Assembly: GCA_030432255.1 (NCBI GenBank) | Contig: JAUIHS010000023.1 | Span: 3,224-67,223 of the forward strand | Direction of reading: 5' to 3' | From: Phycisphaerae bacterium | GTDB lineage: Bacteria; Planctomycetota; Phycisphaerae; Phycisphaerales; UBA1924 | DNA: 64,000 nucleotides | Shown: positions 3,601 through 50,531 of the stretch, one piece after another | Layout: every line of letters starts with the position of its first letter | Position numbering within the stretch: position 1 is the first letter of the stretch | Notes under the pieces: generated by a model | What the model saw: only the letters and a program-made list of their open reading frames with translations | The model's database searches: none | What the model was told of the DNA's origin: nothing | Position numbers and translations under genes: made by a program

Positions 3601-4667
3601 ACGACTCACTCGCGGATGTTGTGATCACGAATCGTGGGAGCGACAACGTCGCGATCCTTCTGAACGATGGAGACGGCCTCTTTCCATCGTTCTACGGTGT
3701 GGGTGTCGGCACGGCGCCGGTGGCGGTTGCGCTGGGAGACCTCGACGGTGATGGGCGCCCGGAGATCCTGACCGCGAATGAGGAGAGCGACGACCTCGCG
3801 GTGGTCTACAACGACGGTGGGGACGACAGCAGTGAATGGCGGGGCGCGACCTTCCACCCGGTCGGCCAGCGTCCCAGCGATGTCGCCCTGGCGGACTTCG
3901 ACACGGACAAGTTCGACGACCCGATTCTCAGCGTCAGAGGCGACGATCGGATCTCGATCTTTACCAATTCGGGGACCGGCACGCTCGGTGCCCGCGTTGA
4001 TCGCACCGTGGGCGATGGTCCATCGCGCCTGATCGTCGAGGATCTCGACGCGGACGGGCGGTCGGACGTGGTCACCATCAATGAAGGCGGTGATGCAGCG
4101 GGTATCCTGCGATCCAACGGTCCGGGCTTCGGCGACTTCGCTCCCGCGGTCGAACAGCCTTTGGCCGGCACACCGCTGTCGCTCGTTGCGGTGGATCTCG
4201 ACGAGGATGCGGATCGCGATCTTGCGATCGTGGTGGACTTCGAGGGCGTCCGTTCGATCGCCTACTACCGCAACGACTACTTCGGGCCCACGGATGACCT
4301 CATCCTGACTGACATCACCGGGGATCCCGGGCTGCCTGATGTCTCCGGTCCCCAGATCGTTCTGCGCTCCGATGTGGACCTGGATGCGCAGGAGGACCTC
4401 GTGGTGATCAACGACGGGAGCGGGGCACGAAGCGCGCACGCTGCGCGGGGCGCAACGCCGGAGCGGGTACGAGTCTTCCTGCCCCTGGGCTGTCCAGGCG
4501 ACGCCGATGGGAGTGGCAGCGTGGACTTCACCGACCTCAATCTTGTCCTCGCAGGCTGGGGAGGCCCCGGCGACGGGGATGTGTTCCCCGTCCCGGGTGG
4601 CGATGGAGTCATCAATTTCGATGATCTCAATGCGGTCCTCGCTCAGTGGGGAGCGTCCTGCAACTGA
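615..4667 (+). CDS. Giant secreted protein: right-handed beta-helix (PbH1/Pmp-like) repeats, FG-GAP/VCBS-like repeats and a C-terminal dockerin-like module
   Basis: Track ORF 393..4667. I moved the start to ATG 615, which has GGAGG 7 nt upstream and gives the signal peptide [29 protein letters not shown]. The N-terminal third has GGAI/GGAV-type beta-helix repeats. The region from about 3400 to 4300 has repeated D-x-D/N-x-D-G-x-x-D(L/V)V segments (for example [30 protein letters not shown] and [26 protein letters not shown]), which are FG-GAP/VCBS-like. The protein ends [24 protein letters not shown]...[22 protein letters not shown]. Confidence 0.8.
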
Positions 4668-4796
4668 GCAGAAAATGTCCAGATTCCGATCTCTCGCCGG
4701 GCGCGCGCCGCGCGGGCTGCCAGAGGGATGGTGAACAGCCTCCCGCGGCGGCCGGATGGACCGGCCTTCCCGAAGGAGGATCGGAAAGGACATGCC

Positions 4797-6430
4797 ATGC
4801 AGGTCAAGACATCTACTTCATCGTGTTCGACTTCCCGCTTTGACCGGCGCTCGCGTCTGGCGATCGCTTCCCTGCTTGTCATCGCCGGCGCTGCGACGTC
4901 GGCAGTGCAGGGGGCGAACATTTACGTCGACGCCAGCGCCTTCGGCCCGGAGGACGGTTCATTCTTTGACCCGTTCAACACGATTCAGGAGGGCATCGAC
5001 GCGGCTTCACCTGGTGACACGGTCGTCGTCCGAGATGGCGTCTATCAGGGCGCGGGCAACACCAGTCTCCTGCTCCCCTGCAACAATATCACCATTCGCT
5101 CCTCCAATGGATGGGGTTTCACGACCATCGACGGCAGTGCGGGAGGGTCCGGGTTCATCATCAACGGCCCCGGCGTTTCTGCTGGCACATCCCGGATCGA
5201 GGGCTTCCGCTTCGTCAACCTGTTCCATCCCATCGGGGGCGCCGCCATCGACTGTGAGGACTGCACTATCGAGGTGGTTGACTGCCAGTTCGAATCCAAT
5301 TCGGCCCGCTCGTATGGTGGCGCGGCATCGTTCGTGGACTCGGTCGTGGACATGGACGCCTGTGGATTCGAGTCGAATACGACGGATGATGGCGGCGCCG
5401 TCTACTTCAACCGAAGTGACGCGACCGTCGCGAATTGCAGTTTCACAGCAGGCCATGTGGCGGAGGAACTTGGCGGAGCCATGTTCATCACCGGTCAGAG
5501 CGATGTCACCATCACCGACTCCGCCTTTTCCGGAAGTCATGCGGAAGAGGACGGCGGCGAGATCGCTGTTCGAAGTGCCAGCCTGCTGTCCGTCAGCAAC
5601 TCGACCTTCTCTGACAGCAGTGCAACCTGGAACGGCGGGGCGATCCACGCCCGTGCCGCGAGCGTGACCCTGGACCAGGTGAGCTTCAATGCAACAGAAG
5701 CGGAGGATCGGCGCGGCGGTGCTCTGATGGCGGTCGAAGAGACCTGGGTCATCATCTCGAACTCGAACTTTCTCAACTGCTCCTCCTACCGGGGTGGTGG
5801 TGCCATCTTCGCCGACGACAGCACGATCGAAGTCAGTGCCTCGTCCTTTGGTGGCAATGACGCTGGCACTCAGGGCGGTGCGCTCCGTCTGCGCTCTGGG
5901 GCTGCCGGTACGGTCACAAACGTTGACTTTGACGGCAACTCTGCTCAGTGGGATGGCGGCGCCATCACGAGTTCCGATGGATCCACGCTCTCTGTCAGCG
6001 GCAACTCGACATTCACGAGCAATACCGCCGCGACCGATGGCGGGGCCATCTCCAGTACGGATGCGAGTGAACTCACGGTTGCGAACACAACTTTCGCAGA
6101 GAACGTCGCTGAACGGGGCGGTGCCGTGTTCACTGAGAATGCCGCGGCTACGACCCTGGTTGACGGGTCGGAGTTTTACGAGAACATCGCCATGTCCGAC
6201 AACGGGGGCGCGATCAGCAGCGTCTTCGGCCAGCTCGACGTCAGCAACAGTCACTTCAACGACAATGAGGCTCTGTCTGGCTATGGCGGCGGCGTTTCGA
6301 CCAGCAGTGAGACCAGTCTGACCGTGAATGGGTCGACGTTCACTCGCAACAGGGCCCTTTCGGGAGGCGGACTCAGTGCCGAGAACGTCGGAGCCACCAC
6401 ATGGCTCAACGACTGCATCTTCAAGGACGC
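4797..6430 (+). CDS. Secreted polymorphic-membrane-protein/PbH1-like beta-helix repeat protein, 3' end disrupted (nominal ORF runs to 6932)
   Basis: Track ORF 4728..6932. ATG 4797 has GGAAAGGA upstream and gives the signal peptide RLAIASLLVIAGAATSAVQG. More than 15 repeats follow of the form ...F.xN.A.xxGGA(I/L/V/M)..., for example NSARSYGGAASF, TTDDGGAVYF, SSATWNGGAIHA, AATDGGAISS and AERGGAVFT. The repeat rhythm and coding-like composition stop after ...TTWLNDCIFKD at about 6428. Downstream the frame is only the antisense of the neighbouring gene. Confidence 0.6.
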
Positions 6431-8228
6431 CGCCGCTCTGGACCGTCAGGCTGCCGCCGATCACGCCCGTGCCATCGAGCCTCACACCCTCGAACATGAC
6501 GGGCCCGGTGCCGGTGAGCGAGGCGAACTGCCGCGCGGCGTCCTTCAGGCGCAGGCTCCCGTCGGTCACCGTGAGACCGCCCGAGTAGTTCGCGTCGTGC
6601 GCCAGTTCAAGCATTCCGGTTCCGATTTTCTCGATGCTGCCGGGACCGCCGGCCGCGTCAATGATCTGGAAATCGATGGTCGAGGTTCCGGGATCGTCAG
6701 TCAGGACAAGTGCGCTGCCGTTCGCGGAATCGCTGATCTCCACGAGTGGATTGGCGTCGAGGTACACGGTGAGTCTCGGCGTGGTGAGGACGCCGCCGTT
6801 GACGGAGATCGAACTGGAGTCCATGAAGACGTCAATGCCGTCCGATGCGGACACCGACCCGCCATCGGTGATGGACAATCCACCAGTGCCGCCGTACTGC
6901 CCCGAGTGGTAGCCCCCGAGGAAGAGTCTTGATATCCCGAGCGTCGAGCCCGTGCCCTGCACAGTGATCGTCCCGAAGTTGTTCGCCGACAAGCCTGCGA
7001 CGATGGCGTCGGCTACGACGTCACCTCCACTCTCGATCAGGAGCGCGCCGTCAGCGCTGGCGGTCGTGTTGCCCCCGACGACGAGCCACGGCTCCGAGCC
7101 CAGGGTGACATCCAACAGACCTCCATTGGAGACCGTCAGGGTGCAAGGGGAACCGGACCCTCCCAGGTCGAGCCGGCTCGCCAGCGCGTGAGACCCGGAG
7201 CCGGTGATCAGCATCTCAGCGCCATTCACAATCCAGCAACTCCCTTCGTAGACGCCACCGGTGCCGGTGCTCGGCATCTGAACCGTGGCGCCGCCTCGGA
7301 CTTCCACAGCCGTACCCACCCCGGAGATCGTCATCTCCTGCAAGCCGTCGGCTGGCATCGTGAGTGTGGCACCGTCGAGTACGAATCTGCCGCCATATGA
7401 ATCGAACCCGCCGACCGTTGCGCTCCCGGTCAGGGTGTGTGATTGCGATCCCTGGATCTGAATCGTGGACGTCTCGTCCCCCGTGATCGTACCTCGGTAG
7501 GTTGCGTCGAAATCCGCGCCGGCCAGCGTGAGTCGGTTGCTCTCGAGTTCGACTGTCCCGGTGGCGTCGCCCCAGAGCGCACCGATCGTCTCATTGTTGA
7601 GCAGACGAAGCGTTCCGGCCAGTTCGACGCCGATGGCGTCGGTGTCCGAATACGCAGAGCCACCCCCGAGGACAACCTCGCCGTTCTGGACGGCCAGGTC
7701 ACCGCCGACGCTGTTGTTATTGCCCGCAATGATCAGCGTGCCGTCCCCCATCTTCTGCAGAGGGTCCACGTAGAAGTCGTCGCCGGAGGTGTCGAACTCG
7801 CCGATGACCTCGACGGTCATGCCCTCGGCGATGGTCCAGATCGAGTCAGGGCGAACTTCGACATTCGCCGCGATCAGGTGGGTGAGAAACGCGCCGTCCG
7901 AGGCGCACGTGAGGTCGCCGAACAACAGCGATCCGTTGGAGATGACGTACTGCGTGGAGCTCTCGAACTTCACGCTGTCGATGGTCGGTGGAAAGGTGTC
8001 CAGGTTGACCGAGAATCGCGAGGCCGCGCTGCTGAACACAGCCCGGTCGGCGGATCCGGGCATGGCGGACCAGTTCCCCGGGTTGGGCCAGAGGTTGTTG
8101 AACGTGCCGGTCCAGTAGCAGTCCGCCGCGTGGGTCGTGCCGCAGGAGGTGGCGAGCGCCATGGCCATGCAGCAGCGTGTCATCAGGGGTGTCAGTCGAT
8201 GGGCCTGAACTGTTGTCGTCGTCTTCAT
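6420..8228 (-). CDS. Secreted autotransporter-associated beta-strand-repeat-like protein, 3' end disrupted (nominal ORF runs to 5007)
   Basis: Track ORF 5007..8285. ATG 8228 gives MKTTTTVQAHRLTPLMTRCCMAMALATSCGTTHAADCYWTG (signal peptide). It then carries the motif typical of this family, FNNLWPNPGNWS, followed by repeats of the type K(M/I)GxGxLxLxGxNxYxGGLTVxxGxLxL (KMGDGTLIIAGNNNSVGGDLAVQNGEVVLGG; EKIGTGMLELAHDANYSGGLTVTDGSLRL). It is credible only down to ...GGSLTVQSGGVL at about 6423. Beyond that the frame is antisense of the Pmp-like gene. Confidence 0.6.
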
Positions 8229-8435
8229 GTCTGTACCTCGTCTTCCGGGTGGCTGGTGTGTTCTCGCGACAGTCGGATGTGGCATCGCTCCAATGGAGGA
8301 GCGTCACCTCTCCCCTGAAACGCAGGGCGTCGCCGGGCTCCCTGACGAAATGTCAATCCATCTCGAAAAAGTCGGCACAGACTCGTTGGTGTTCCGTTAG
8401 GGGCTGGTCGGCCTGACGTACAATGAGTCGAAAGA

Positions 8436-9026
8436 GTGATGCCCATGCCGCCGAATGACCATCACGATGCGACTGCGCTGCTGAACCGAATGAGCGACGG
8501 AGATTCCGCCGCAGCCAGCGACCTCCTGCCCTTGGTGTACGAGCACCTTCGCGCGGTGGCAGGCAGTTACTTCCGCGGCCAGCCCGCCAATCATTCACTC
8601 CAACCGACTGCGCTGGTGCACGAGGCCTATCTGAAACTGGTCAACTCGCCGAGCAGCGACTGGAACGGGCGGGTGCACTTCTGCGCCGTCGCGGCCACCG
8701 CGATGCGGCAGATCCTGCACGACCGCGCCCGTCGCCGGAAGGCCGCGAAGCGGGGCGGCGGAGACGCACGCCGGCTCCCGCTCGAGCACATCGAGACACC
8801 CACGGGTGGAACCAGAATCGACCTGCTCGCGCTCGACGAAGCGCTGGACAAGCTGACCGAACTGGCGCCGCGCCAGGCCCGCATCATCGAACTGCGCTTC
8901 TTCGGCGGACTGACCATCGAACAGACCACCGAGGTGCTCGGCGTGTCGCACGCAACAGTGGAGAATGACTGGCGCGTGGCGCGGGCGTGGCTCAGCCGGG
9001 AACTGCAGAGCGGAGAGGGCGAGTGA
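8436..9026 (+). CDS. ECF-type RNA polymerase sigma factor (kinase-associated ECF group)
   Basis: 196 aa. LLPLVYEHLRAVAGSYFRGQPANHSLQPTALVHEAYLKLV is a sigma-70 region 2. APRQARIIELRFFGGLTIEQTTEVLGVSHATVENDWRVARAWL is a region 4.2 HTH. The layout matches the ECF family that is typically encoded next to Ser/Thr kinases instead of anti-sigma factors. Confidence 0.9.
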   Translation: MMPMPPNDHHDATALLNRMSDGDSAAASDLLPLVYEHLRAVAGSYFRGQPANHSLQPTALVHEAYLKLVNSPSSDWNGRVHFCAVAATAMRQILHDRARRRKAAKRGGGDARRLPLEHIETPTGGTRIDLLALDEALDKLTELAPRQARIIELRFFGGLTIEQTTEVLGVSHATVENDWRVARAWLSRELQSGEGE

Positions 9027-11425
9027 ACGCCGCGGAGCGGTATCAGAAGGCCGTCGAACTCTTCCACGAGGCCGCCCAACTCCCGACTGAAGCGCGCAGC
9101 GAGTTCCTGCAGCAAAGTTGCGGTGACGATGCGGCACTGCGGGAAGAAGTCGAGTCGCTGCTGGAACATGACGACGCGGAGGGCGATCTCTTCGGTCCGG
9201 GCAAAGGCGTCGAGATGCTCGCCGAGGACCTGTTCGGAGATCAGGCGGACGACCTCACCGTGGCCGGTCCGCTTCCGGGCCGCATCGGACCGTATCGGAT
9301 TCTCCGGCTGATCGGCCGCGGCGGGATGGGGCTCATCTACGAGGCCGAGCAGGACTCCCCGCGCCGGCGAGTTGCGCTCAAGGTTCTCCAGGCCGGTGCG
9401 GTCAACGTATCGATGCTGCATCGTTTTCGGCAGGAGGCTCAGCTTCTCGGCCAACTACAGCATCCCGGCATCGCGCAGGTCTTCGAAGCGAGTGTTGCTG
9501 AGATCAATGGCGCTCGACAGCCATTCTTTGCCATGGAGTTCATCGACGGTCTGCCGCTAGACCAGCACGCCGAGTCTCACGGATTGAACCTCCGGCAGAA
9601 GCTCGAGTTGGTCGCTCGTGTCTGTGATGCGGTGCAGCACGCGCATCAAAAGGGTGTGATCCATCGCGATCTCAAGCCTGCCAACGTTCTCGTCGTGACA
9701 CAGTCGATCGGATCGCAGGCCACGACCGGGAGCGCCCTCACCGTTGATGAGATCGGGTTGCCCAAGGTGCTCGACTTCGGTGTCGCTCGTGTGACGGACG
9801 CAGATGTGCAAGGTGCGACACTGCACACCGAGGTCGGGCAACTCATCGGCACGATCGCATATATGAGCCCCGAGCAACTTCGCGGCGACTCGACCAGTCT
9901 CGACACCCGGTGCGACGTGCACGCGCTGGGTGTCATTGCGTACGAACTGCTCGCGGGCACGCTTCCGCACGATCCCTCAGGACTCTCCGCGGCGGAGGCC
10001 ATCCGTCGGGTGCAGGAGACGGAGCCAACCCGTCTCGGGATCCGCGTGCCAACCCTTCGCGGCGACGTCGAGACCATCGTCGCCAAGGCGCTCGAGAAGG
10101 ATCGCGAACGCCGTTACGGCTCAGCCGCTGAACTCGCCGCGGACATCCGGCGCTTTCTCCAAGACCAGCCCATCGAGGCCCGGCCCGCCAGCCGTCTCTA
10201 CCAACTTCGGAAGTTTTCCAAGCGAAACACCGGGCTGGTTGTCGGGATCGCCGCTGCGCTCCTGGCCTTGTCCATCGGCCTCGTGTTCACGACCATCAGC
10301 GCTCGGCGCGCCCATGAGGCCACGCTTCGCGCGGAGCTGGAGAGCCAGCGCGTGAAGGAGTCAAAGCAGGATCTGGCCTTGCTGTCGGGGTTCCAGGGCG
10401 CGATTCTCAGCCGTGCGGACATGCAGGAGATGGGCAGCCTGATTCTGGGCGAGCTTGACACACTGCTTGATGAGGACCACGACAACGAGTTGCTTCGCGA
10501 TGCGCTTCGTGACGTCAACCCGGCGTCACTTGCCCGGCGGGTCGTTGACGAGAGCATCCTGACGCCCGCATCCCGTGCCGCGATCGAGGAGTTCGCGGAT
10601 CGACCGACCATCGAGGCGGATGTTCGCATGGCATTGAGCGAGTCATACTTCGAGCTTGGCATGCTCGAGCAGAGTCTGCGCGAGGTGGAGGCCGCCCTTG
10701 CACTGCGACGCGAGCATCTGGGAAACGAGCACAGCGATACGATTCACGCGATCGGGATTATCGGCACAGTTCTCAGTGCCATGGAGCGGTATGCGGAAGC
10801 GGAGTTGTGCATCGCGGAGGAACTGCGGCTGCTGCGGGCGACGCTCCCGGAGGATGACGAGAGAGTGCTTCAGGGGCGCGATCGCATGGTGGTGGTCCTG
10901 ACCGGACTGGAGCGGCTGGACGAGGCGATTGAAGCCGCGGAGGCGGTCGTGGCCGACGCCACCCGCGTGTCTCCTCCCGACGATCCCCAACTGCTGCACT
11001 TTCGCCGACATCTCGCCCGACTCTACGGGCGCACCCAGCAATTTGAGAAGGCCCTCACCATGTTCCAGATCCTGCTGGCCGACCACGAGCGCGTGTTCGG
11101 CGAGGATCATGAGCGGACCTTGATCTGTCGCTCCCATGTGGCTGGAACGCTCGCCAGGCTCGGGCGCTTTGCCGAGGCCGAACCGTTGTACGCGACACTC
11201 CAGCGCCAGGCCGAGACACGCTACGGAGAATTCGATCCACGTGCCGTCGGCCTGCTCGGCAGTCTCGCCCGAGTGAGGACAGATGCGGGCTACCGGGAAG
11301 CGGCGCTGGCCACATTCAGGCGATTGCTGGAGAGACAGAGCCAGTTTCTTCCCGATGACCATCCGGCGATCCGTGAAACGGAAGACGCAATCGAGCGATT
11401 GGAATCGACGCTGGATGGCAGATGA
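9023..11425 (+). CDS. Ser/Thr protein kinase with one transmembrane helix and a C-terminal TPR-like domain
   Basis: Track ORF 8987..11425. The likely start is GTG 9023, which overlaps the sigma factor stop as GTGA. Kinase motifs: GRGGMGLIYEA, VALKVL, HRDLKPANVLV, DFGVAR, YMSPEQ. A TM helix follows (GLVVGIAAALLALSIGLVFTTI), then tetratricopeptide-like repeats. Confidence 0.9.
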   Translation: MNAAERYQKAVELFHEAAQLPTEARSEFLQQSCGDDAALREEVESLLEHDDAEGDLFGPGKGVEMLAEDLFGDQADDLTVAGPLPGRIGPYRILRLIGRGGMGLIYEAEQDSPRRRVALKVLQAGAVNVSMLHRFRQEAQLLGQLQHPGIAQVFEASVAEINGARQPFFAMEFIDGLPLDQHAESHGLNLRQKLELVARVCDAVQHAHQKGVIHRDLKPANVLVVTQSIGSQATTGSALTVDEIGLPKVLDFGVARVTDADVQGATLHTEVGQLIGTIAYMSPEQLRGDSTSLDTRCDVHALGVIAYELLAGTLPHDPSGLSAAEAIRRVQETEPTRLGIRVPTLRGDVETIVAKALEKDRERRYGSAAELAADIRRFLQDQPIEARPASRLYQLRKFSKRNTGLVVGIAAALLALSIGLVFTTISARRAHEATLRAELESQRVKESKQDLALLSGFQGAILSRADMQEMGSLILGELDTLLDEDHDNELLRDALRDVNPASLARRVVDESILTPASRAAIEEFADRPTIEADVRMALSESYFELGMLEQSLREVEAALALRREHLGNEHSDTIHAIGIIGTVLSAMERYAEAELCIAEELRLLRATLPEDDERVLQGRDRMVVVLTGLERLDEAIEAAEAVVADATRVSPPDDPQLLHFRRHLARLYGRTQQFEKALTMFQILLADHERVFGEDHERTLICRSHVAGTLARLGRFAEAEPLYATLQRQAETRYGEFDPRAVGLLGSLARVRTDAGYREAALATFRRLLERQSQFLPDDHPAIRETEDAIERLESTLDGR

Positions 11426-11647: not shown

Positions 11648-13360
11648 TCACCAGACCTGGCAGACGTCACCCCAATGTTCGAGGAACTCGGTCAGATCTG
11701 AGAAGTCGACGGCGCCGTCGGCATCGATGTCGCCGGGAATGGTGCCCGGCTCACCGAACGTGGCCCAGTTGTCGAGCAGGATATTGAGATCCATGAAGTC
11801 GACTTCGAAGTCGCCGTTCATGTCACCAATGCATCCCTGTGGCGTCGTGAATACGACCACCGCCTGGCTGCCGTCGTCGAATGTGAGCTTCGCCGCGAGT
11901 TCACCGGCATCATTCCATGGGGCGCGATGTCCATCTTCCGGTCCGGCGGTGAGGTAGCGTGTGGTGTAGCTGTCGACGGTGCGGAAGTCGCCGGGAGCGA
12001 CTTCGATGACACTGCCTTCGCGGATCAGCAGCACGGTTCCCTCGTAGGGCGTGGTCGCCCAGAGGCCGGTGTCGTTGTCGACCGTGACTCCGGGCCCGAT
12101 GATCCGCGATGTGAACGCCACCTGCCCGGCATTGTTCAACGCGTTCATCCATTCTGCGCTGCTCAGGTACTTCACACCTGCCCCGACGCCGGCGGGCTGG
12201 TCGCCCTCGCGAACAACGAGTTTGAGATCGCCACCTGCGTCCCGGCGCATCATGGCCGAGTTGTTCCCCGGATTGACTCCGAACCCATGCAGCCGCACGC
12301 TGAAGACGGAATCACTGGCGGTGTTGAGCGGGGCCGCGGCCCCCTCGAACTCGTAGATGTAGATCGACGGATCCCACGTCTGATCAGCATCGTAAAGCAC
12401 GCCATCGAGGTCACCCTGTCCCATGAACAGGCCATCACCCTGGCCGCCCAGCATGGTGACGCGCTGGAGCATGGAGACGTCACCGGCGTTGTTGATGCTG
12501 AGTTCCGGCATGACGGTGTCGACGGTATGGAACCAGTAGCCGGGCGTCGGTGTTGGTGCGCCGGCGATGGCGATGGTCTCTGATCCGCCGGCATCGATGC
12601 GCTGCACACTCCACGCGCTGTCACCGGGAACTGAGAGTCTGTTGGTGATCGCGATCTGGTCATCGCTCAATCGAATGGCATCCGAGATCTGGCCGAATGT
12701 GCTGAAGATCACGTCGGGCACCAGGTCGCCTTCACGAAGGACGCTCGAGAGCGGGCCGAAGTTGTCAGTCCACACACCGGTGTCATTCGCTGCACTGACG
12801 CCGGGTCCATCGACCCATGCGCTCATGGCAACGGAACCCGATTCGTTCAGGGCCATCGAAGGGAAGTCAGACCAGAAGACACCGGGCGCCTCGCCGGGTA
12901 CCTGCGTGCCAACTCGCGCGATGACCTCGTGACCGAAGCCGGAGTTCCTGAGCACGATGGCGCGGGGTGCCGCGACCCCGTCGATGCTGGTCCTGATGAG
13001 CAGGGTGCCTGCATCGTTCATGCGAAAGACGTGTTCCCAGCCGGAGACATCACCAAATGAGGAACCCGGCATGCCCGGTACCGGATCGCCCTCGCGGAGC
13101 ACCAGTGACATCGAGCCTGTACCGAGGAATCCCTCGGTCCAGATACCCGAGTCGTCGATCCCGCCCGTCAGGTGTGCTGAGAAGCTGACCTCACCGGCGC
13201 TGTTGATCGCCGGCGGGCCGAAGTACGTATAAGCCTGGCCCGTCCCGGGGGCGGGGTCACCAGTCATGGCAACCACCCGAACGCCGACGCCGGCACCGGA
13301 CACGGAAGAGACAATCCCCGCCACGCCGGCAAGACAGATCAAATCACGAATAGCAAGCAT
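11648..13360 (-). CDS. Secreted NxxGxxAF-type tandem-repeat protein with C-terminal dockerin-like module
   Basis: 570 aa with an N-terminal signal sequence (MLAIRDLICLAGVAGIVSSVSGAG). Recurrent motifs are INSAGEVSFSA, MNDAGTLLIRT, LNESGSVAMSA, INNAGDVSML and LNNAGQVAFTS, each followed by DxTG(I/L/V)W. The protein ends CIGDMNGDFEVDFMDLNILLDNW...GDIDADGAVDFSDLTEFLEHWGDVCQVW. Confidence 0.85.
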   Translation of the reverse strand: MLAIRDLICLAGVAGIVSSVSGAGVGVRVVAMTGDPAPGTGQAYTYFGPPAINSAGEVSFSAHLTGGIDDSGIWTEGFLGTGSMSLVLREGDPVPGMPGSSFGDVSGWEHVFRMNDAGTLLIRTSIDGVAAPRAIVLRNSGFGHEVIARVGTQVPGEAPGVFWSDFPSMALNESGSVAMSAWVDGPGVSAANDTGVWTDNFGPLSSVLREGDLVPDVIFSTFGQISDAIRLSDDQIAITNRLSVPGDSAWSVQRIDAGGSETIAIAGAPTPTPGYWFHTVDTVMPELSINNAGDVSMLQRVTMLGGQGDGLFMGQGDLDGVLYDADQTWDPSIYIYEFEGAAAPLNTASDSVFSVRLHGFGVNPGNNSAMMRRDAGGDLKLVVREGDQPAGVGAGVKYLSSAEWMNALNNAGQVAFTSRIIGPGVTVDNDTGLWATTPYEGTVLLIREGSVIEVAPGDFRTVDSYTTRYLTAGPEDGHRAPWNDAGELAAKLTFDDGSQAVVVFTTPQGCIGDMNGDFEVDFMDLNILLDNWATFGEPGTIPGDIDADGAVDFSDLTEFLEHWGDVCQVW

Positions 13361-37500: not shown

Positions 37501-37603
37501 TGACTCATCTCCTCGATGGACGACACCTCCTTCCGGTGCCGTCATGGATCTCACTTATGATGTCGGCCTGCATCCGGCAGGACGCCACCCGCATGAAGCG
37601 TTC

Positions 37604-37789: not shown

Positions 37790-38830
37790 TCAGCCGCGAT
37801 TCCTGGAATCGTCCAGACTCGGCGCCTTGTTCGGCGGTGCCGCCGTGGTCTGGTTGATCTCGAATCGCGTCGGCACCAGCCGACGGAGCGAACCGGAGGT
37901 CTGGCCGGACAGCAGGCGGGTCAGCCATCGCGCCGATTCAAACCCCAGTTGAACCGCGTCCTGGCACACCGCCGTGAAGGGCGGAAAGGCATGCTGACGC
38001 ACATCACTGTCATCGAAACCGACGAGGGAGAGATCCCGCGGCAGTTGCAGGCCCAGCGCCCTGCAGCGATGCAGCGCGCCGAGGGTGGCCAACGGGTCCG
38101 TGAAGTAGAAAGCCGTCGGGGGATCCGGCAGGCTCAGGAAGTACGTCACGGCATTCGCGCCGCCATCCATGTCCGCGACGATGTCTGCGATCAGCGCCGG
38201 GTCCAGTTCCATGCCGGCCGCCTTGATCGCATCGATGTACCCCGCGCGCCGGTCTTCGTGGTCTGTATCACGCACCTGGTGGACACCGATACCGATCCGA
38301 CGGTGGCCGAGGTGGATCAGGTGCTCGACAGCCTTGCGGCTCTCAACCCGTGACTCACTGCCAATGAAGTTCACCTCGGGCTCATCAAACCGATCCGCAA
38401 TCACGATGGATGGGAAACCCTCCGCCGCAATGTCGTGGCACACCTCGCGGGTGTCGCTGGAGGTTCGAAGGATGGCACCGCTCACGCCCTTCCGACGGAA
38501 GAAACTCGTGTAGCTCTCGTCCGGGGACTTGTCCCGGAAGATATTGAGGATGTTGACGTCGAAACGATGCTCGTTGATGCCTTGAAGGATGCCGCGCATC
38601 AGGGCGGCGTCGAAGCCGCCGTAATCGACCCGGCCCGGTTCCCATGTATAGGCCAGCGCCAGGACGCGCGACTGCGAGTCGTTACGTCGGAGGGTATACC
38701 CGACGCGCTCCGCCTCGGCGAGAACGGCCTGCCTCGTCGTCTCATTGACGTTCGGCTTGCCGTTCAGTGCACGCGATACGGTGGCGACTGAGACGCCGAT
38801 GTTCTTCGCGATCGTTCGTACAGATGACAT
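37790..38830 (-). CDS. LacI-family transcriptional regulator
   Basis: 346 aa. IAKNIGVSVATVSRALNGKPNVNETTRQAVLAEAERVGY is the LacI HTH. A periplasmic-binding-fold sugar-binding core follows. Confidence 0.9.
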   Translation of the reverse strand: MSSVRTIAKNIGVSVATVSRALNGKPNVNETTRQAVLAEAERVGYTLRRNDSQSRVLALAYTWEPGRVDYGGFDAALMRGILQGINEHRFDVNILNIFRDKSPDESYTSFFRRKGVSGAILRTSSDTREVCHDIAAEGFPSIVIADRFDEPEVNFIGSESRVESRKAVEHLIHLGHRRIGIGVHQVRDTDHEDRRAGYIDAIKAAGMELDPALIADIVADMDGGANAVTYFLSLPDPPTAFYFTDPLATLGALHRCRALGLQLPRDLSLVGFDDSDVRQHAFPPFTAVCQDAVQLGFESARWLTRLLSGQTSGSLRRLVPTRFEINQTTAAPPNKAPSLDDSRNRG

Positions 38831-38842
38831 GTAACAGTTCCA
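38830..38842. promoter_or_regulatory. Candidate LacI operator copy (TGTAAC-A-GTTCCA) abutting the lacI-family start codon
   Basis: tgtaacagttcca has one mismatch to the 37604 palindrome. It overlaps the first base of the regulator ATG (38828-38830 on the - strand). Confidence 0.35.
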
Positions 38843-39007
38843 AGCTTACCCACGATTGGGACGGAAGCAAGCGGGAGTGCCGATGGCGTGGAAGACTCGT
38901 TTCAGACGAGGGACGCGTCGGTGACATTCTCGGGCCTGATTCAGTCGGGAGTGGCACCCAATGATCGGAATTCTGTTGCCGCGTCCGGCCCGCCCGTCTA
39001 CTCTTGG

Positions 39008-39020
39008 TGTAACTGTTTCG
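39008..39020. promoter_or_regulatory. Candidate LacI operator half-conserved copy (TGTAAC-T-GTTTCG) upstream of the GH16 gene
   Basis: tgtaactgtttcg lies 37-49 nt upstream of GTG 39057. The left half-site is perfect and the right half is degenerate. Confidence 0.3.
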
Positions 39021-39056
39021 GTAGCGGTACGCGCCCACCCTGCGAGGAGATCACCT

Positions 39057-40496
39057 GTGCGCCAGATTCTGCCCACCCTGTTGCTGGTCGTCGCCGCGAG
39101 TTCGCTGCACGCGGACGAGTTGCTGTGGTCTGACGAGTTCGACGGTACCAGCCTGGATACTTCCAAGTGGGAAGCGATGCTGGGAGACGGGAGCTTCTAC
39201 GGGATTCCCGGCTGGGGCAACAATGAGTTGCAGTACTACCAGTCGGATTCGGACAACCTCTTTGTCTCCGGTGGGTTGTTGCACATTGTGGCCCGCCAGC
39301 AGTCGGCAGGTGGCTACAACTACACCTCCGCCCGCATCCGGACGCGGAACAAGGCCGACTTCCTTTACGGTCGGCTCGAAGCACGGATCCAGATCCCGTC
39401 CGGGCAGGGTCTGTGGCCAGCCTTCTGGATGCTCCCGACCAACAGCCCCTACGGTGGCTGGGCCGCCGGCGGTGAGATCGACATCATGGAGTCGGTGAAC
39501 ACCGCGACCAGCGCCCATGGCACCATTCACTTCGGTGACAACTGGCCGGGCAACGTCAGCAACGGGGGCAGCCTGTATCCCGGCGGCGTGATCACCGGCT
39601 TCCATGTCTATGCGATCGAGTGGGATCCGCTCCAGATCCGCTGGTACTTCGATGGCCAGCTTTTTCACACGGTCAACGCGAACCAGTGGTTCAGCACCGG
39701 TGCCTCCGGTGATACCGAAGCGCCCTTTGATGTGCCCTTCCATTTCCTCCTGAACGTCGCGGTCGGCGGCAACTGGCCGGGACCGCCCAATGGATCCACC
39801 CCCTTCCCCGCCGAGATGCTCGTTGACTGGGTGCGGGTCTATGTCGATGAACTGCAGGCGCCTTACGGCGGGTCGGCAACCATCCTGCCGGGGACAGTGG
39901 AGGCCGAGGACTTCGATCTCGGAGGTGCCGGTCAGGCCTTCTGGGATGCGGATGCCAGCAACAACGGCAACCAGTACCGGACGGACCAGGGTGTCGACAT
40001 CGAGGCGTGCTCCGAGGGCGGCTTCAATGTCGGTTGGATCCGGGAAGGCGAATGGCTCGAGTACACAGTGACCGGTCAGGTGGGTGAGTACAACGTGGTC
40101 GCGCGGGTGGCCTCCGAGTCCGCCGGCGGAACGTTCCGGATCGAAGTCGATGGCGTCGATGCCACCGGCCCGATCACGGTTCCCGTGACCGGGGGCTGGC
40201 AGACCTGGACCGATGTCAGCGCGACGCTCGAACTGCCCTCCGCCGGAACCCATGTCCTCCGCTTCGTGAACACCACGCCGCTCGGTGAGTACAACTTCAA
40301 CAGGCTCGATTTCACCTTTGTCCCGCCGTTCATGGGCGATGCCAACGGTGATGGTCAGGTCGACTTCCTCGACCTCAACCTGGTCCTGACCTTCTGGGGG
40401 ACAAACGACCCCCGCGCCGACCTCAACGGGAACGGCCTGGTCGAGTTCGATGACCTGAACATCGTTCTCGGAAACTGGGGCGCGGTCGACAACTGA
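39057..40496 (+). CDS. Secreted GH16 beta-1,3(-1,4)-glucanase (laminarinase-type) with CBM6-like module and C-terminal dockerin-like module
   Basis: Track ORF 38961..40496. GTG 39057 has GAGGAGA upstream and gives VRQILPTLLLVVAASSLHA. Motifs: LLWSDEFDG, GWGNNELQYY, LWPAFWMLP, and the GEIDIMES catalytic E-x-D-x-x-E. A CBM6-like segment follows (VEAEDFDLGG...QYRTDQGVDIE...GWIREGEWLEYTV...GTFRIEVDG). The protein ends GDANGDGQVDFLDLNLVLTFWG...LNGNGLVEFDDLNIVLGNWGAVDN, which lacks the bracketing Cys residues. Confidence 0.9.
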   Translation: MRQILPTLLLVVAASSLHADELLWSDEFDGTSLDTSKWEAMLGDGSFYGIPGWGNNELQYYQSDSDNLFVSGGLLHIVARQQSAGGYNYTSARIRTRNKADFLYGRLEARIQIPSGQGLWPAFWMLPTNSPYGGWAAGGEIDIMESVNTATSAHGTIHFGDNWPGNVSNGGSLYPGGVITGFHVYAIEWDPLQIRWYFDGQLFHTVNANQWFSTGASGDTEAPFDVPFHFLLNVAVGGNWPGPPNGSTPFPAEMLVDWVRVYVDELQAPYGGSATILPGTVEAEDFDLGGAGQAFWDADASNNGNQYRTDQGVDIEACSEGGFNVGWIREGEWLEYTVTGQVGEYNVVARVASESAGGTFRIEVDGVDATGPITVPVTGGWQTWTDVSATLELPSAGTHVLRFVNTTPLGEYNFNRLDFTFVPPFMGDANGDGQVDFLDLNLVLTFWGTNDPRADLNGNGLVEFDDLNIVLGNWGAVDN

Positions 40497-40647: not shown

Positions 40648-41460
40648 ATGATGATGCATCGCGCAATCAGTGCGGCGGCGAGCGTGTTGATCTGTGCCGC
40701 GGCACAGGGACAGTCATTCAACCTGGACCTCGGCCTGGACAGCGGTGTCCCCTCGAACGCATATGGGGCGGTCGGATTTCCCGGCTTCTGGAACAGCTTT
40801 GGCCCGGAAGTCGCTCCCCCCGGTGGTGTCTTCAACGGCCCGCTCATGGACATTGCAGGCGCACCGACCAGCGCCACGGTGCGGCAGATCGGCGCGAACT
40901 CGGTGCAGGCCGCTGACGACGCGGCGACCACCGGCGACGCGGAAGCCCTGATGGACGACTACGCGCAGGCGACCAACAGTCCGCTGGACCAGTGCTATTT
41001 CTTCTCGGGAATTCAGAACGGGACCTACGAGGTTCTGACCTACGGCTGGACGCCCAATCATCCGGAGCGTTTGTCGCGCCTTCGGGTGGACCCGCCGGCG
41101 ATCGGTGGTCCGCTGGATGTCGGTGGCGCGTGGACCGGGCAGCATGTCGAGGGCGTGACGTACGCCAGGCATCGCATCACGGTGAGCAACGGTCAGATCA
41201 ACCTGCATTCGGGCCTGTTCGGCGGCAATGTGCTCTCTTCCATGAACGGGATCCAGATCGTCCGTCTCCCTGATCCAGCGTGTGCGGGCGACATCAATGG
41301 CGATGGCGCCGTCAACTTCGACGATCTCAACATATTGCTGGTTCACTGGGACAAGCCGGATGGTGCGACGTTCAGCCAGGGTGACATCGATGGCAGCAAT
41401 ACCGTCGACTTCGATGACCTCAACACATTGCTGACGACCTGGGCGGCGACCTGCTCCTGA
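40648..41460 (+). CDS. Secreted protein of unknown function with C-terminal dockerin-like module
   Basis: 270 aa. Signal peptide MMMHRAISAAASVLICAAAQGQS. The core is unrecognised. The protein ends CAGDINGDGAVNFDDLNILLVHW...GDIDGSNTVDFDDLNTLLTTWAATCS. Confidence 0.7.
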   Translation: MMMHRAISAAASVLICAAAQGQSFNLDLGLDSGVPSNAYGAVGFPGFWNSFGPEVAPPGGVFNGPLMDIAGAPTSATVRQIGANSVQAADDAATTGDAEALMDDYAQATNSPLDQCYFFSGIQNGTYEVLTYGWTPNHPERLSRLRVDPPAIGGPLDVGGAWTGQHVEGVTYARHRITVSNGQINLHSGLFGGNVLSSMNGIQIVRLPDPACAGDINGDGAVNFDDLNILLVHWDKPDGATFSQGDIDGSNTVDFDDLNTLLTTWAATCS

Positions 41461-41502: not shown

Positions 41503-42222
41503 ATGAACATTCAATCCAACACCGTGCTGGCATTGCTCGCCGCGGCGGGCATGTGTCTGGGTCTCGCCGGTTGCTCTGATGACGGGTTCGACGACGGCAA
41601 TCGTCCCACCGGGAGTGATTCGGCAGATGCCGGGACCGAGACCGGTTCCGACGCCGGCGATCATTCCCATGACGATCACGATCACGCTGATCACGATCAC
41701 GACCATGATCATGCTGAGGAGGAGGAGCCAGCGGCGAAGGAACCGCAGGGCCTTCCGGTCAATATCGGCAACGCGGTCTACTCCGTGGGCGGAGTGATGA
41801 TGACGCTGCCGCCGGCGTGGGAGAGTGTTCCGGTCACATCCACTCTGAAGCAGGCTCGCCGTCAGTACGTGATCCCGGGTGATGGCGGTCAGGGTGCGGC
41901 GACGGTGTACGTCGGCTCGATGGGGCCGAAGGAAATGAACATCGAGCGTTGGGTCAAGCAGATCGTGACGCCGGATGGAGAGGTTGAACGGCGCGAGCAC
42001 CATGGTCCCATGTGTTCAGTCGTCGAGGTGGTTGGTCACGGGGAGGTGATGGCGACCATGGGAGCGGCGCCCGAGGCGGACTACACGCTGATGGCACTGC
42101 TCATCGAGGGAGGCCATGAAGGGGACATGTACATCAAGGCCGTCGGGCCCACCGAGACCATGAAGCAGTATGAGGACAACTGGCAGCAGTTGGTCGACTC
42201 CATTGTGAGATCGAAGCTCTGA
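41503..42222 (+). CDS. Lipoprotein with His/Asp-rich low-complexity tract, function unknown
   Basis: 239 aa. The lipobox is LGLAGCSDD. The tract reads GDHSHDDHDHADHDHDHDHAEEEE, and the remainder looks globular. Confidence 0.7.
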   Translation: MNIQSNTVLALLAAAGMCLGLAGCSDDGFDDGNRPTGSDSADAGTETGSDAGDHSHDDHDHADHDHDHDHAEEEEPAAKEPQGLPVNIGNAVYSVGGVMMTLPPAWESVPVTSTLKQARRQYVIPGDGGQGAATVYVGSMGPKEMNIERWVKQIVTPDGEVERREHHGPMCSVVEVVGHGEVMATMGAAPEADYTLMALLIEGGHEGDMYIKAVGPTETMKQYEDNWQQLVDSIVRSKL

Positions 42223-48671: not shown

Positions 48672-48845
48672 GCTCTCGTCAACATCCTCGGTTGGTGTCC
48701 TATTCCACGGGGAACCAAAAGAAGGTCGCGCTTCGGTCTGCCGGCATTCGCCCGTATAGTAGGGGCCTTGTGTGTCCATCGCGCGGCGGCCCTTCGGAGG
48801 GAGACCGAGACGTCCGCCCCGAACAGTTGATAGAGGAGTTACTCC

Positions 48846-50531
48846 ATGCGTCAGTCCATCGTGATGCTCAGTCTGTCCCTCGCAGGTGCCGTTTCGACCG
48901 CCAGCGGCCAGGGGTTGTCGTACAACTATTTCGGTGAGCAGATCCCCCTCGGGGTCGATGCCACCCGGATCGCCATCTTCGCACCCGACGGTGTTGATGC
49001 TGCGGAACGGGCGCTGAGCCGCCGCGGCGTGGACGTGAGCACTCGCGTTGCCAGTGCCATCGAGGGCTGGAGCACGTACGAGGTGCCGGCTGAGCGGCGC
49101 ACGGTTGAGGGAGCGACGTTTTTCGCCATGGATCTCGCGGCTGACGTCTCGTTCGTGTCGCCGGTCTTCATCGACCAGCGCACCATGCCGTTGATCATGA
49201 CGCCCGATCTGATCATCGGGTTTGATGAGACGCTTCCGGACGAGAAGGCGGAGGCGATCATTGAAGCGATGGCTCCGGGTCAGATTCTGGATGTCGACTT
49301 CGGTGGCCTCGACAACGTGTATCGCGTGCGCACGTCGCTGACACATGGGCTCGATGTGCTCGAGGTGACCCATGCGCTGGCGTCGAGGCCGGGCGTGAAG
49401 TTCGCCGAGTCCGACTTCATCGTGAAGGGCGAGAGTTTCTTCGTGCCGAACGACCCGCTGTTCATGGATCTCTGGGGCCTGGATCAGGCGAACGATCAGG
49501 ACATGGATGCGCCGGAGGCGTGGGACCTGGAGATGGGTGACAGTTCGGTGCAGGTGGTGATCCTGGACGTCGGCATGCAGCAGGGCCATCCCGATCTCAA
49601 TGACATCCCGGGCATGGACTTCAGCGGCAGCGTTGCTGGTGGCGGTCCCGCGAATGAGTGCGACAACCACGGTACGGCGGTGGCGGGCTGCGTTGCGGGT
49701 GTCATCAACAATGGCATCGGCATCAGCGGCATTGCGCCGGGGTGCATCGTGAAGTCGGGCAAGATCGGCACTTCGACGAGCTTCTTCGGCGCCTGCCTCG
49801 GCACCTTCGACTCCCAGCCTTCCATGCTCGTGAGTGCGCTGAACTGGTCCGTCTCAAGCGGCGCACGGGTGACCAACTCCAGCTTCGGCTATACCAACTC
49901 CGCATCGGTAACCAGCGCCTACGCCAACGCCCGCAACAACGGTGTGATCCACTTTGTTGCAACGGGCAACGGCGGCACGTCGAGCATCTCCTATCCGGCC
50001 AGCCTTCCGACAGTCGTCGCCGTCGGCGCCATGGCGGCAAGCGGCAACCGGGCAACATTCAGCCAGTACGGCGTGGGCCTCGATATCTCTGCCCCCGGCC
50101 AGCTCATCACCAGTACGGATCGCACGGGTTCCAATGGCTACCAGGCGGGTGACTATGTCGACGGCCTCGACGGCACTTCCTTTGCTTCGCCCTACGCCGC
50201 TGGTGTCGCGGCACTCGTCATCTCCGCCGATCCGTCACTCACCGTCGACGAAGTGGAGCAGATCCTCTACAGCACGGCGGTCGATCGAGGCGTCTCCGGC
50301 TATGACACGACCTTCGGCTGGGGCTTCATCAACGCGTACAACGCCCTGCTCGCGGTTGCTCCAGCGTGTCCCGGTGATGCCACGGGCGACGGCATGGTGA
50401 ACTTCGACGACCTGAACGTCGTGCTCACCAACTGGGGCACGGCCGGGCCGGATGGTGATCTTGATGACAGCGGGACGGTCGACTTCGACGACCTCAACGC
50501 CGTGCTGACCGCGTGGGATTCGGCCTGCTGA
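48846..50531 (+). CDS. Secreted subtilisin-like S8 serine protease with C-terminal dockerin-like module
   Basis: 561 aa with a signal peptide and a propeptide. Catalytic motifs: VVILDVG (Asp), DNHGTAVAGCVAG (His), GTSFASPYAAGVAALV (Ser). The protein ends CPGDATGDGMVNFDDLNVVLTNWG...[25 protein letters not shown]. Confidence 0.9.
   Translation: MRQSIVMLSLSLAGAVSTASGQGLSYNYFGEQIPLGVDATRIAIFAPDGVDAAERALSRRGVDVSTRVASAIEGWSTYEVPAERRTVEGATFFAMDLAADVSFVSPVFIDQRTMPLIMTPDLIIGFDETLPDEKAEAIIEAMAPGQILDVDFGGLDNVYRVRTSLTHGLDVLEVTHALASRPGVKFAESDFIVKGESFFVPNDPLFMDLWGLDQANDQDMDAPEAWDLEMGDSSVQVVILDVGMQQGHPDLNDIPGMDFSGSVAGGGPANECDNHGTAVAGCVAGVINNGIGISGIAPGCIVKSGKIGTSTSFFGACLGTFDSQPSMLVSALNWSVSSGARVTNSSFGYTNSASVTSAYANARNNGVIHFVATGNGGTSSISYPASLPTVVAVGAMAASGNRATFSQYGVGLDISAPGQLITSTDRTGSNGYQAGDYVDGLDGTSFASPYAAGVAALVISADPSLTVDEVEQILYSTAVDRGVSGYDTTFGWGFINAYNALLAVAPACPGDATGDGMVNFDDLNVVLTNWGTAGPDGDLDDSGTVDFDDLNAVLTAWDSAC

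Follow-up and report, generated by a model that had tools for sequence, protein, structure and literature searches.

What could proteases, a beta-glucanase, giant beta-helix proteins and proteins of no recognised family have in common, that all of them should end in the same short module? The question is raised by a DNA stretch of 64,000 nucleotides (nt) from a Phycisphaerae bacterium (GenBank assembly GCA_030432255.1, contig JAUIHS010000023.1, positions 3,224 to 67,223 of the forward strand), which is called the window below and is always meant at its full length. Eleven genes of the window, here called carriers, encode proteins with a C-terminal module of two segments with calcium-ligand positions, bracketed in ten of them by two cysteines. 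By its predicted fold this module is a dockerin. The explanation that is considered rather probable is that the carriers are exported and docked in a calcium-dependent manner, through a dockerin closed by a disulfide clasp, on one surface receptor specific to the genome.

Eleven copies of one C-terminal module

A first-pass annotation of the window had reported eleven modules of this kind. Translation of the corresponding intervals gave eleven modules of 54–61 residues, each followed by the stop codon after 0–3 further residues, in agreement with the position claimed for them. Ten modules have one Cys at the start and a second one 0–3 residues from the C-terminus. The copy of the carrier with a glycoside hydrolase family 16 (GH16) domain (40332–40493) starts with F-M-G-D, ends with WGAVDN and contains neither Cys, as had been noticed before. 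The modules are internally duplicated following the pattern G-D-x-(D/N/T)-G-x-x-x-V-(D/N)-F-x-D-L-N-x-(V/L)-L-x-x-W, with a linker of 6–12 residues between the two segments. The alignment of the eleven copies displays a mean column identity of 56% and thirteen invariant columns (D4, V11, F13, D15, L16, L20, W23, D30, F43, D45, L46, L50 and W53). When each segment is numbered with its first calcium ligand as position 1, the loop residues D1 and D12 occur in every copy of either segment, while D or N (also S or T) predominates at positions 3, 5 and 9.

A hidden Markov model (HMM) built from the eleven copies was used to search the window in all six frames, cut into pieces from stop to stop. It returned precisely the same eleven copies with 77–91 bits, and the next best piece reached 6 bits. 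This difference indicates that eleven is the complete count and lies far beyond chance; an origin by chance or as a low-complexity repeat was thus rejected. The peptides quoted earlier as near-identical are also real: MVNFDDLNEVLTNW occurs twice in the gene at 18057–19490 (probable start 18111), and VNFDDLNEVLA(F/N)WN occurs twice in the gene at 35659–37554.

The modules are listed here with their scores for the window HMM and, in several cases, for the NCBIfam model NF041540, which is dealt with in the following section.

4491–4664, plus strand: module of 58 residues, Cys at both ends; ends the carrier 393–4667; window HMM 77.2 bits
11651–11833, minus strand: module of 61 residues, Cys at both ends; ends the carrier 11648–13360; window HMM 84.1 bits; NF041540 18.5 bits over positions 1–67 of 67
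14353–14532, minus strand: module of 60 residues, Cys at both ends; ends the carrier 14350–17775; window HMM 87.9 bits; NF041540 20.7 bits
19314–19487, plus strand: module of 58 residues, Cys at both ends; ends the carrier 18057–19490; window HMM 87.6 bits; NF041540 23.9 bits
21238–21405, plus strand: module of 56 residues, Cys at both ends; ends the carrier 19573–21408; window HMM 90.8 bits; NF041540 26.1 bits
23083–23244, plus strand: module of 54 residues, Cys at both ends; ends the carrier 21418–23247; window HMM 84.8 bits; NF041540 20.3 bits
27012–27191, minus strand: module of 60 residues, Cys at both ends; ends the carrier 27009–33545; window HMM 80.3 bits; segment position 14 is E, not N, in each of the two segments
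35662–35835, minus strand: module of 58 residues, Cys at both ends; ends the carrier 35659–37554; window HMM 85.6 bits; NF041540 22.5 bits
40332–40493, plus strand: module lacking both Cys, with F at clasp position -2; ends the GH16 carrier 38961–40496; window HMM 78.5 bits
41281–41457, plus strand: module of 59 residues, Cys at both ends, longest linker; ends the carrier 40648–41460; window HMM 83.0 bits; NF041540 18.6 bits
50367–50528, plus strand: module of 54 residues, Cys as last residue; ends the S8 protease 48846–50531; window HMM 89.4 bits; copy used for the structure model

Fold and family of the module

The copy of the S8 protease was modelled with AlphaFold2 on an alignment of 76 sequences. 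The model obtained (pLDDT 96.9) consists of two helices, one after each loop. Comparison with the Protein Data Bank (PDB) using Foldseek gave the dockerin of Bacteroides cellulosolvens (2Y3N_B) as best match, with a TM score of 0.86 and a root-mean-square deviation of 1.3 Å over 52 columns. The top 17 matches were all dockerins, and 4U3S_B, 3KCP_A, 2B59_B and 2OZN_B were among the further dockerin matches. A sequence profile search of the PDB placed calmodulin (E = 3.6e-05) slightly ahead of dockerins (about 1e-04). A calmodulin-type EF-hand pair was nevertheless rejected, since calmodulin chains reached a TM score of about 0.3 against the model, and since each of the two helices follows a loop and no entering helix is present. 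The sequence matches to calmodulin reflect the loops only. The predicted fold is that of a dockerin, which supports the dockerin-like character that had been attributed to the module.

Searches with existing family models gave a weaker but consistent signal. Pfam Dockerin_1 (PF00404) matches eight of the eleven modules at E < 1, and EF-hand models match most copies, always below threshold. All eleven modules are also found by the NCBIfam model NF041540 ('GC-type dockerin domain-anchored protein'), with E-values from 1.1e-07 to below 1 and every score lying under its cut-off; the label of this kind mentioned in the first-pass annotation does exist. In nine of the ten carriers scanned whole, the alignment covers positions 1–67 or 3–67 of the 67 positions of NF041540, and in the GH16 copy positions 11–64. 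The eleventh carrier was not found at E ≤ 0.01 when scanned as a whole protein. The GH16 copy gives the top window score for both models, with 26.6 bits for NF041540 and 18.9 bits for Dockerin_1.

Ten relatives of the window modules, taken from other genomes, were scored in the same way, and two of them pass the NF041540 cut-off. One is P0034 (34.0 bits), named 'GC-type dockerin domain-anchored protein [Phycisphaerales]' and matched by the window profile at 3e-13, and the other is a FLNFN-type module (33.5 bits); the remaining eight score 16–28 bits. With two of ten relatives passing, sub-threshold scores are normal within the family. Searching a word-indexed protein collection with the module profile gave fragments of at most 107 residues, with their names and without domain architectures. 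Judged by sequence, the window copies are homologous members of a catalogued family that NF041540 under-calls. The model misses most copies because its cut-off is conservative, and the NCBI pipeline would probably not give its name to the copies of the window.

The cysteine pair as a probable intramolecular clasp

The N-terminal Cys of the module is located at position -2 from the conserved Gly ahead of the first calcium loop (C-P-G0-D1). Dockerins generally have an intramolecular clasp, in which a residue at -1 to -3 before G0 contacts the C-terminus (Slutzki et al., 2013, PMC3821032). In the same work, the melting temperature of the ScaA dockerin fell from 61 to 41 °C when this clasp was mutated, and its binding to cohesin became about ten times weaker. 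The clasp was described in 2Y3N, the structure which is also the top match of the window module. The clasps published in that work are non-covalent, formed by Trp-Pro, Trp-Tyr, Met-Pro or Lys-Tyr contacts or by charge pairs, and a disulfide is not mentioned there. The window modules resemble these clasps in having a Cys at -2 and a partner Cys at the C-terminus, and in the GH16 copy, which lacks the cysteines, F occupies position -2; they would differ from them in that the contact is covalent.

In the wider set of dockerin-like sequences, both cysteines are present in 149 cases, one of them in 21 and 51 cases, and neither in 181 cases (odds ratio 25, p = 1e-41, with no correction for phylogeny). 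The AlphaFold2 model contains a beta-bridge from residue 10 in the first loop to residue 53, which is adjacent to the last Cys. Because of the clasp position, the co-occurrence of the cysteines, the F at -2 in the Cys-less copy and the beta-bridge, it is most likely that the Cys pair acts as a disulfide clasp formed after export. The first-pass annotation had taken the Cys bracket, together with the missing cohesin, as a sign of a different receptor or of a disulfide-closed anchor. The bracket does not point to a different receptor, as it occupies a known clasp position of dockerins, and it carries no information on the nature of the receptor.

A four-Cys subtype was also observed (P0046, P0047, P0063, P0077, P0093, P0094 and others), with W-G-(P/E/D)-C closing each segment and C-P-(E/A)-D opening the second loop. 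This related subtype may carry two disulfides and is distinct from the two-Cys type of the window.

Distribution in Phycisphaerales

A search of representative proteins with the module profile gave 45,950 matching proteins at E ≤ 1e-3, of which 2,222 reach E ≤ 1e-10, the wider set taking in generic dockerin-like repeats and proteins made of tandem modules only. Relatives were collected with the four closest window modules as queries, each GTDB species being represented by one genome; the source genome is not among these representatives. The scan confirmed 192 sites, from which 79 loci were kept, nearly all of them from Phycisphaerales or Phycisphaeraceae and including one isolate with a complete genome. 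The best identity to a window copy was 68%. Together with the window, the 79 loci contain 157 unique carriers in 30 genomes, at a density of up to 7 carriers per 20 kb. The module ends 0–4 residues before the stop in 145 of these 157 carriers, and both cysteines are present in 132 of 134 full-length modules. Passengers found elsewhere include M10 and S8 proteases, peptidyl-arginine deiminase (PAD), FG-GAP proteins and beta-helix/PMP proteins. By sequence, the Cys-bracketed module type with its VDF-x-DLN motif is concentrated in Phycisphaerales. Eleven carriers in 64 kb make the window unusually rich in this tag, which is in use throughout the order.

Other arrangements of the module exist. Cys-bracketed modules near the N-terminus are rare and were seen at residues 122–175 of 855 in L003:10469-13033 (plus strand) and at residues 49–105 of 901 in L073:4286-6988 (minus strand). 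Tandem Cys-bracketed copies were seen in P0144 (three copies) and in P0150 and P0151 (two copies each). Six proteins of about 370–390 residues (P0120, P0121, P0122, P0131, P0137 and P0138) contain nothing but a signal peptide and six dockerin-like modules in tandem, mostly with no Cys bracket. These 'poly-dockerin' proteins might act as cross-linkers or adaptors.

Carriers and the interchange of C-terminal anchors

The following proteins carry the module in the window.

393–4667, plus strand: giant protein with FG-GAP and T5SS/PEP-CTERM-associated repeats; longest open reading frame (ORF) 1424 residues
11648–13360, minus strand: NxxGxxAF 'choice-of-anchor' repeat protein (DUF7453; Pfam 2.5e-75, TIGR05002 172 bits)
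14350–17775, minus strand: trypsin-like protease with proprotein-convertase P-domain and MAM-like domain (Pfam)
18057–19490, plus strand: NxxGxxAF protein, probable start 18111; body matches the MXAN_5453 family (MXYO-CTERM-anchored) at 1.2e-102, under the model cut-off
19573–21408, plus strand: NxxGxxAF protein (Pfam, NCBIfam)
21418–23247, plus strand: NxxGxxAF protein (Pfam, NCBIfam)
27009–33545, minus strand: beta-helix/FG-GAP protein of 2178 residues with choice-of-anchor Q domain (43.6 bits, cut-off 25)
35659–37554, minus strand: protein of 631 residues, no family above threshold; weak match to CBM_4_9 (E = 0.045)
38961–40496, plus strand: GH16 beta-glucanase with CBM6 (Pfam)
40648–41460, plus strand: secreted protein of 270 residues, no family matched (Pfam)
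48846–50531, plus strand: S8 subtilase; an identical protein is present on a metagenome contig of 28.5 kb (Logan ERR3428548)

Family scans agreed with most of the descriptions given in the first-pass annotation. The name 'CBM-repeat' protein for 35659–37554 is insecure, as its CBM_4_9 match is under the cut-off. By inspection of the sequences, a basic-then-hydrophobic N-terminus resembling a signal peptide is present in all eleven carriers. The true start of 393–4667 is probably downstream of the longest-ORF start, since its hydrophobic signal stretch starts at residue 84. One carrier out of eleven is a glycoside hydrolase, the others being proteases, beta-helix/FG-GAP proteins, NxxGxxAF proteins and proteins of no family. 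The module is found on at least seven unrelated passenger types within the window. The four NxxGxxAF/DUF7453 proteins are paralogues, one on the minus strand (11648–13360) and three head-to-tail on the plus strand (18057–23247). In a collection of 5.8 billion proteins, the nearest homologue of the 11648–13360 body has 34% identity, which indicates that the genome is distant from its sequenced relatives.

Several carrier bodies belong to families whose members use different anchors. 'Choice-of-anchor' models are matched by the four NxxGxxAF proteins (TIGR05002) and by the 2178-residue protein (choice_anch_Q). With a relaxed pattern, a PEP-CTERM-like tail was found at the end of 62 of 119 homologues of the 11648–13360 body. 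A stricter classification of these homologues found 12 that end in a dockerin-like module and 4 in which such a module is followed by a PEP-CTERM tail. None of the eleven C-termini of the window has a PEP-CTERM tail (PEP motif, transmembrane helix and Arg/Lys-rich end). The PEP-CTERM tails on passenger homologues argue for a C-terminal slot that is interchangeable between known surface anchors and the module. Together with the variety of passengers, this sustains the proposal that the module is a portable anchoring tag, and it probably pins its carriers to a cell-surface receptor. Cys-less dockerin-like modules located directly before a PEP-CTERM tail were observed in P0283, P0287, P0305, P0355, P0090 and P0099 and in L017:2-1384. 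The tail that follows implies that the dockerin-like part is not itself the membrane anchor in those proteins.

An exchange of this kind could also point to a C-terminal sorting signal, similar to the C-terminal domain (CTD) of the type IX secretion system (T9SS) or to PEP-CTERM/exosortase, with the module being cleaved or the protein being covalently attached by a dedicated machine. The terminal position in 145 of 157 carriers, the replacement of the module by PEP-CTERM tails or by a MXYO-CTERM-type family in homologous passengers, the large and diverse secretome that is marked and the 'choice-of-anchor' classes used by NCBI would all fit such a signal. It is considered quite unlikely. A signal that depends on a free C-terminus would not tolerate the tandem copies of P0144, P0150 and P0151 nor the copies near the N-terminus in L003 and L073. 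In P0283, P0287, P0305 and P0355 an unbracketed module precedes a true PEP-CTERM tail, meaning that the two elements are not equivalent there. No conserved processing gene recurs beside the carriers in the sampled loci, and the fold matches a known protein-binding module.

A genome-specific signature in both segments

Modules of the same genome resemble each other more than modules of different genomes, with a mean identity of 0.62 against 0.52, a difference reached in none of 1000 label permutations. The strongest association with the genome was found at segment positions 10, 13, 14, 20 and 21 (z = 10–16), independently in both segments. In the window, F10 and W20 are present in all 22 segments and N14 in 19 of 22. 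Other genomes display L10/A14/W20, F10/S14/F20, F10/T14/W20 or F10/N14/F20/N21, and there too the residues are shared by the two segments and by almost every paralogue. The signature goes with the genome and not with the passenger family. At 12 signature positions, the identity is 0.88 for modules of the same genome on different passengers and 0.62–0.66 for modules of different genomes, even on the same passenger family, a contrast that is partly circular since these positions were chosen by their genome association. At the other 43 positions, the corresponding values are 0.54 and 0.49–0.51.

Cellulosomal dockerins are uniform within a species, differ between species and have a two-fold symmetry. 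With the helix drawn as a wheel, positions 10, 14, 17 and 21 lie on what we take to be the cohesin-contacting face of clostridial dockerins, and positions 13, 16 and 20 on the presumed core stripe. Because the residues of the signature are likewise uniform within a genome, different between genomes and two-fold symmetric, the simplest reading of the comparison would be one shared, co-evolving receptor per genome with a dual binding mode. The signature thus predicts a single receptor per genome that co-varies with the signature residues. A minority subtype, MLSFG/FLMFG, was observed on one beta-helix passenger in two genomes (L014/L022 and L036; CAYPGJ and JBFXJP), the other modules of these genomes being of type FLNFG. 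This subtype could represent a second specificity class within a genome.

Near-identical peptides had been taken in the first-pass annotation as a sign of concerted evolution of the module. As a pattern this stands, given the contrast at the signature positions, while recent gene conversion as its cause was rejected by the DNA comparison: the eleven window modules have a mean pairwise nucleotide identity of 61% (maximum 77%), their longest shared exact runs are 21–25 nt, and the same codon is used at identical residues with a frequency of 0.52, against 0.47 expected from codon usage. The two segments are near-identical on DNA level only within the modules of 18057–19490 (40 of 42 nt, over MVNFDDLNEVLTNW) and of 35659–37554 (39 of 42 nt), which hints at intragenic duplication or exchange in these two.

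The same data bear on the idea that the module is a calcium-dependent stabiliser or solubiliser with no role in targeting, the uniformity resulting from recent duplication of a founder module or from gene conversion. The higher identity within genomes, the two near-identical segment pairs and the hydrophobic character of several signature positions, which could belong to the core, would be compatible with it. The idea is very improbable in view of the divergent module DNA and of a codon sharing close to expectation. Moreover, the homogeneity is confined to about 12 positions and nearly absent elsewhere, and an alternation with membrane-anchor signals on homologous passengers would be unexpected for a stabiliser.

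Proposed docking on a surface receptor

In the mechanism proposed here, an N-terminal Sec-type signal peptide would export each of the eleven carriers. The module would adopt the dockerin fold with two loop-helix (F-hand) segments, each presumably binding calcium, and its two terminal cysteines would form a disulfide, that is a covalent version of the N-to-C intramolecular clasp. It would then dock secreted enzymes and adhesin-like proteins, non-covalently and depending on calcium, onto a shared and genome-specific surface receptor encoded outside the window. Retention of the carriers at the surface would follow from this docking. The near-identical helix faces of both segments would let the module bind in one or the other of two orientations, like the dockerins of cellulosomes.

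Several results weigh against docking on such a receptor. All copies remain under the Pfam threshold for Dockerin_1, with a best score of 18.9 bits against a gathering threshold of 22.9, and the ten carriers scanned whole score 18.5–26.6 bits for NF041540 against a curated cut-off of 29. The term 'GC-type dockerin' was found in no searchable paper. The circularity in the choice of the signature positions has been mentioned; in addition, positions 13 and 20 are probably core positions, and part of the signature could reflect lineage-specific core packing derived from a founder module and not a binding code. Finally, the search for a partner was negative. No Pfam Cohesin match was obtained in the eleven carriers or in 20 other genes of the window, as the first-pass annotation had stated. 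No recurrent receptor-like family was found beside the carriers by all-against-all clustering of 834 genes from the 79 loci and the window, and there was no cohesin among the Pfam families matched by at least two of 138 exported non-carrier neighbours (best 25 of 137 families).

Of three housekeeping-looking ORFs at 59558–63945, which lie outside this Pfam set, one (61133–62311) was scanned against NCBIfam. Nothing cohesin-like appeared among the NCBIfam results for window proteins of no family, and no scaffoldin was found in the window. Three exported window proteins were considered as receptors and rejected, namely a lipoprotein (41503–42222), a protein of 520 residues (51402–52964) and the product of 50561–51220, all with no family and no cohesin-like signal. 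The non-carrier neighbours that do recur belong to housekeeping or regulatory families and are an amidohydrolase, a radical SAM protein, an extracytoplasmic function (ECF) sigma factor, a Ser/Thr kinase, an ABC ATPase and pilin-like N_methyl proteins. The N-terminal methylation motif of pilins and pseudopilins (PF07963) was seen in 10 of the 138 exported neighbours, and the gene calls on L001 place a further gene of this kind at about 45.7–46.0 kb of the window region. This frequency may correspond to a high planctomycete background.

The negative results on cohesin bring up another possibility, in which the dockerin fold binds a target other than cohesin, such as a surface glycan, peptidoglycan, an outer-membrane protein of another fold or the module itself. 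Besides the missing cohesin in the window and in the sampled neighbourhoods, it could draw on the invariant aromatic residues of both segments (F at 10, W/F/Y at 20), on carriers that are mostly proteases and adhesin-like proteins instead of cellulases, and on a sequence too distant from Dockerin_1 to reach its threshold. It is judged unlikely. The cohesin negatives cover the window and about 1.15 Mb of related loci, a sample of about 1.2 Mb from about 30 genomes, and hold for loci and not for whole genomes. The genome-specific and segment-symmetric helix residues resemble those of cohesin-binding dockerins. Moreover, Pfam cohesin and dockerin modules have been reported together in Nemodlikiaceae, another family of Phycisphaerae, where a peptide-degrading 'planctosome' was proposed (Andrei et al., 2019, PMC6461901).

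A more far-reaching version can be put forward tentatively, although it is doubtful: much of the Phycisphaerales secretome (proteases, glycanases and adhesin-like giants) would be displayed through disulfide-clasped dockerins, and their receptor would be something other than a classical cohesin, for instance a glycan or a protein of the outer membrane or surface layer. Recognition would follow a genome-specific code at helix positions 10, 14 and 21 of both segments. If this were true, each species would keep its enzymes on its own cells, and a new, non-cellulosomal surface-display system would exist in a Gram-negative-type envelope.

Docking of the carriers on a genome-specific receptor bears on how Phycisphaerae retain their many secreted hydrolases and adhesin-like proteins on the outside of the cell. 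In case the receptor is a cohesin, the 'planctosome' idea would be extended to a secretome-wide system; otherwise, a new display mechanism would be at hand. The module type is already catalogued as NF041540 and non-cellulosomal dockerins are known, the eleven copies being new sub-threshold members. What is new is the explanation of the Cys pair as a clasp, the evidence for an interchange of anchors and the genome-specific, segment-symmetric signature. On the practical side, secreted proteins of Phycisphaerales genomes can be annotated better. An experiment is feasible with Phycisphaerales bacterium ac7 (CP159477), a relative that is in culture and has a complete genome.

Neighbouring genes of the window

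Between the carriers, several other genes deserve mention. At 8436–11425 (plus strand), the genes for an ECF sigma factor (PF07638, 9e-55) and for a Ser/Thr kinase of 812 residues with TPR repeats share about 40 nt at the start of the kinase. Homologues of this kinase recur near carriers (7 members in 5 genomes, including the window), and an ECF-type sigma family recurs as well. The region 34120–40496 comprises a GH1 beta-glucosidase (34120–35532, minus strand), the carrier 35659–37554, a LacI-family regulator (37790–38830, minus strand) and the GH16 carrier with CBM6 (38961–40496, plus strand), and is a possible utilisation cluster for beta-glucan (laminarin). The only module copy without a Cys pair is located on the GH16 carrier of this cluster.

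The gene at 41503–42222 (plus strand), 43 nt downstream of the carrier 40648–41460, encodes a lipoprotein-like product with a signal ending in LAGC and an acidic His/Asp tract, DHSHDDHDHADHDHDHDH. No family was matched above threshold, the weak match being to the zinc-uptake protein ZrgA (E = 0.12); the product is probably metal-binding. At 5007–8285 (minus strand), a protein of 1092 residues has a signal peptide and autotransporter-type repeats (PATR, TIGR02601), with neither a dockerin module nor an end that can be recognised as beta-barrel or PEP-CTERM. Roughly the final 130 residues look different from the rest, and the ORF may be mis-framed or fused. Genes for a UDP-glucose/GDP-mannose dehydrogenase, a NAD-dependent epimerase/dehydratase and a GDP-mannose 4,6-dehydratase lie between carriers at 23251–27005, and this nucleotide-sugar block could supply a surface glycan. 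Finally, a RRM-type RNA-binding protein of 98 residues is encoded at 33662–33958 (minus strand; NCBIfam 'Rbp_regulator' 95.9 bits, cut-off 100).

Comparison with known systems

The closest catalogued relatives are the proteins of NF041540, with which the window modules share the C-terminal location and a Cys near each end; the nearest relatives of the window modules come almost entirely from Phycisphaerales or Phycisphaeraceae genomes. They differ in that the window represents a Trp subtype, W20 being present throughout, whereas 67–69% of the family have Phe at this position.

With the cellulosomal dockerins of Clostridia (PF00404), the modules have in common the duplicated F-hand of about 22 residues with D/N at loop positions 1, 3, 5, 9 and 12, the predicted fold (e.g. 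2Y3N_B, 2B59_B and 4FL4), the C-terminal location on diverse secreted proteins, the internal two-fold symmetry of the sequence, and key helix residues that are uniform within a genome and differ between genomes. In contrast to them, the window modules stay under the Pfam threshold, have a short linker and two predicted helices, and use a Cys pair for the N-to-C clasp in place of aromatic or charged residues. At the level of the whole system, a cellulosome has scaffoldins with cohesin repeats, of which none was found in the window, and its dockerins are borne mainly by enzymes that degrade plant cell walls, while a single glycoside hydrolase is present among the eleven carriers. The host also differs, belonging to an aerobic-type planctomycete lineage and not to the anaerobic cellulolytic Firmicutes.

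The 'planctosome' proposal includes peptidases and proteins with proprotein-convertase P-domains (Andrei et al., 2019). The trypsin-like carrier with its P-domain and the S8 carrier of the window fit loosely with it. However, the proposal was based on Pfam matches in few proteins of another family, it describes neither a Cys-bracketed module nor a secretome-wide tag, and it includes cohesins, which were not seen in the window or in the sampled loci.

PEP-CTERM/exosortase and MXYO-CTERM tails, finally, occupy the same C-terminal slot on homologues of the NxxGxxAF, beta-helix and 'choice-of-anchor' proteins. These tails consist of a short motif, a transmembrane helix and a basic end served by a dedicated enzyme, whereas the module of the window is predicted to be a folded, soluble and calcium-binding domain.

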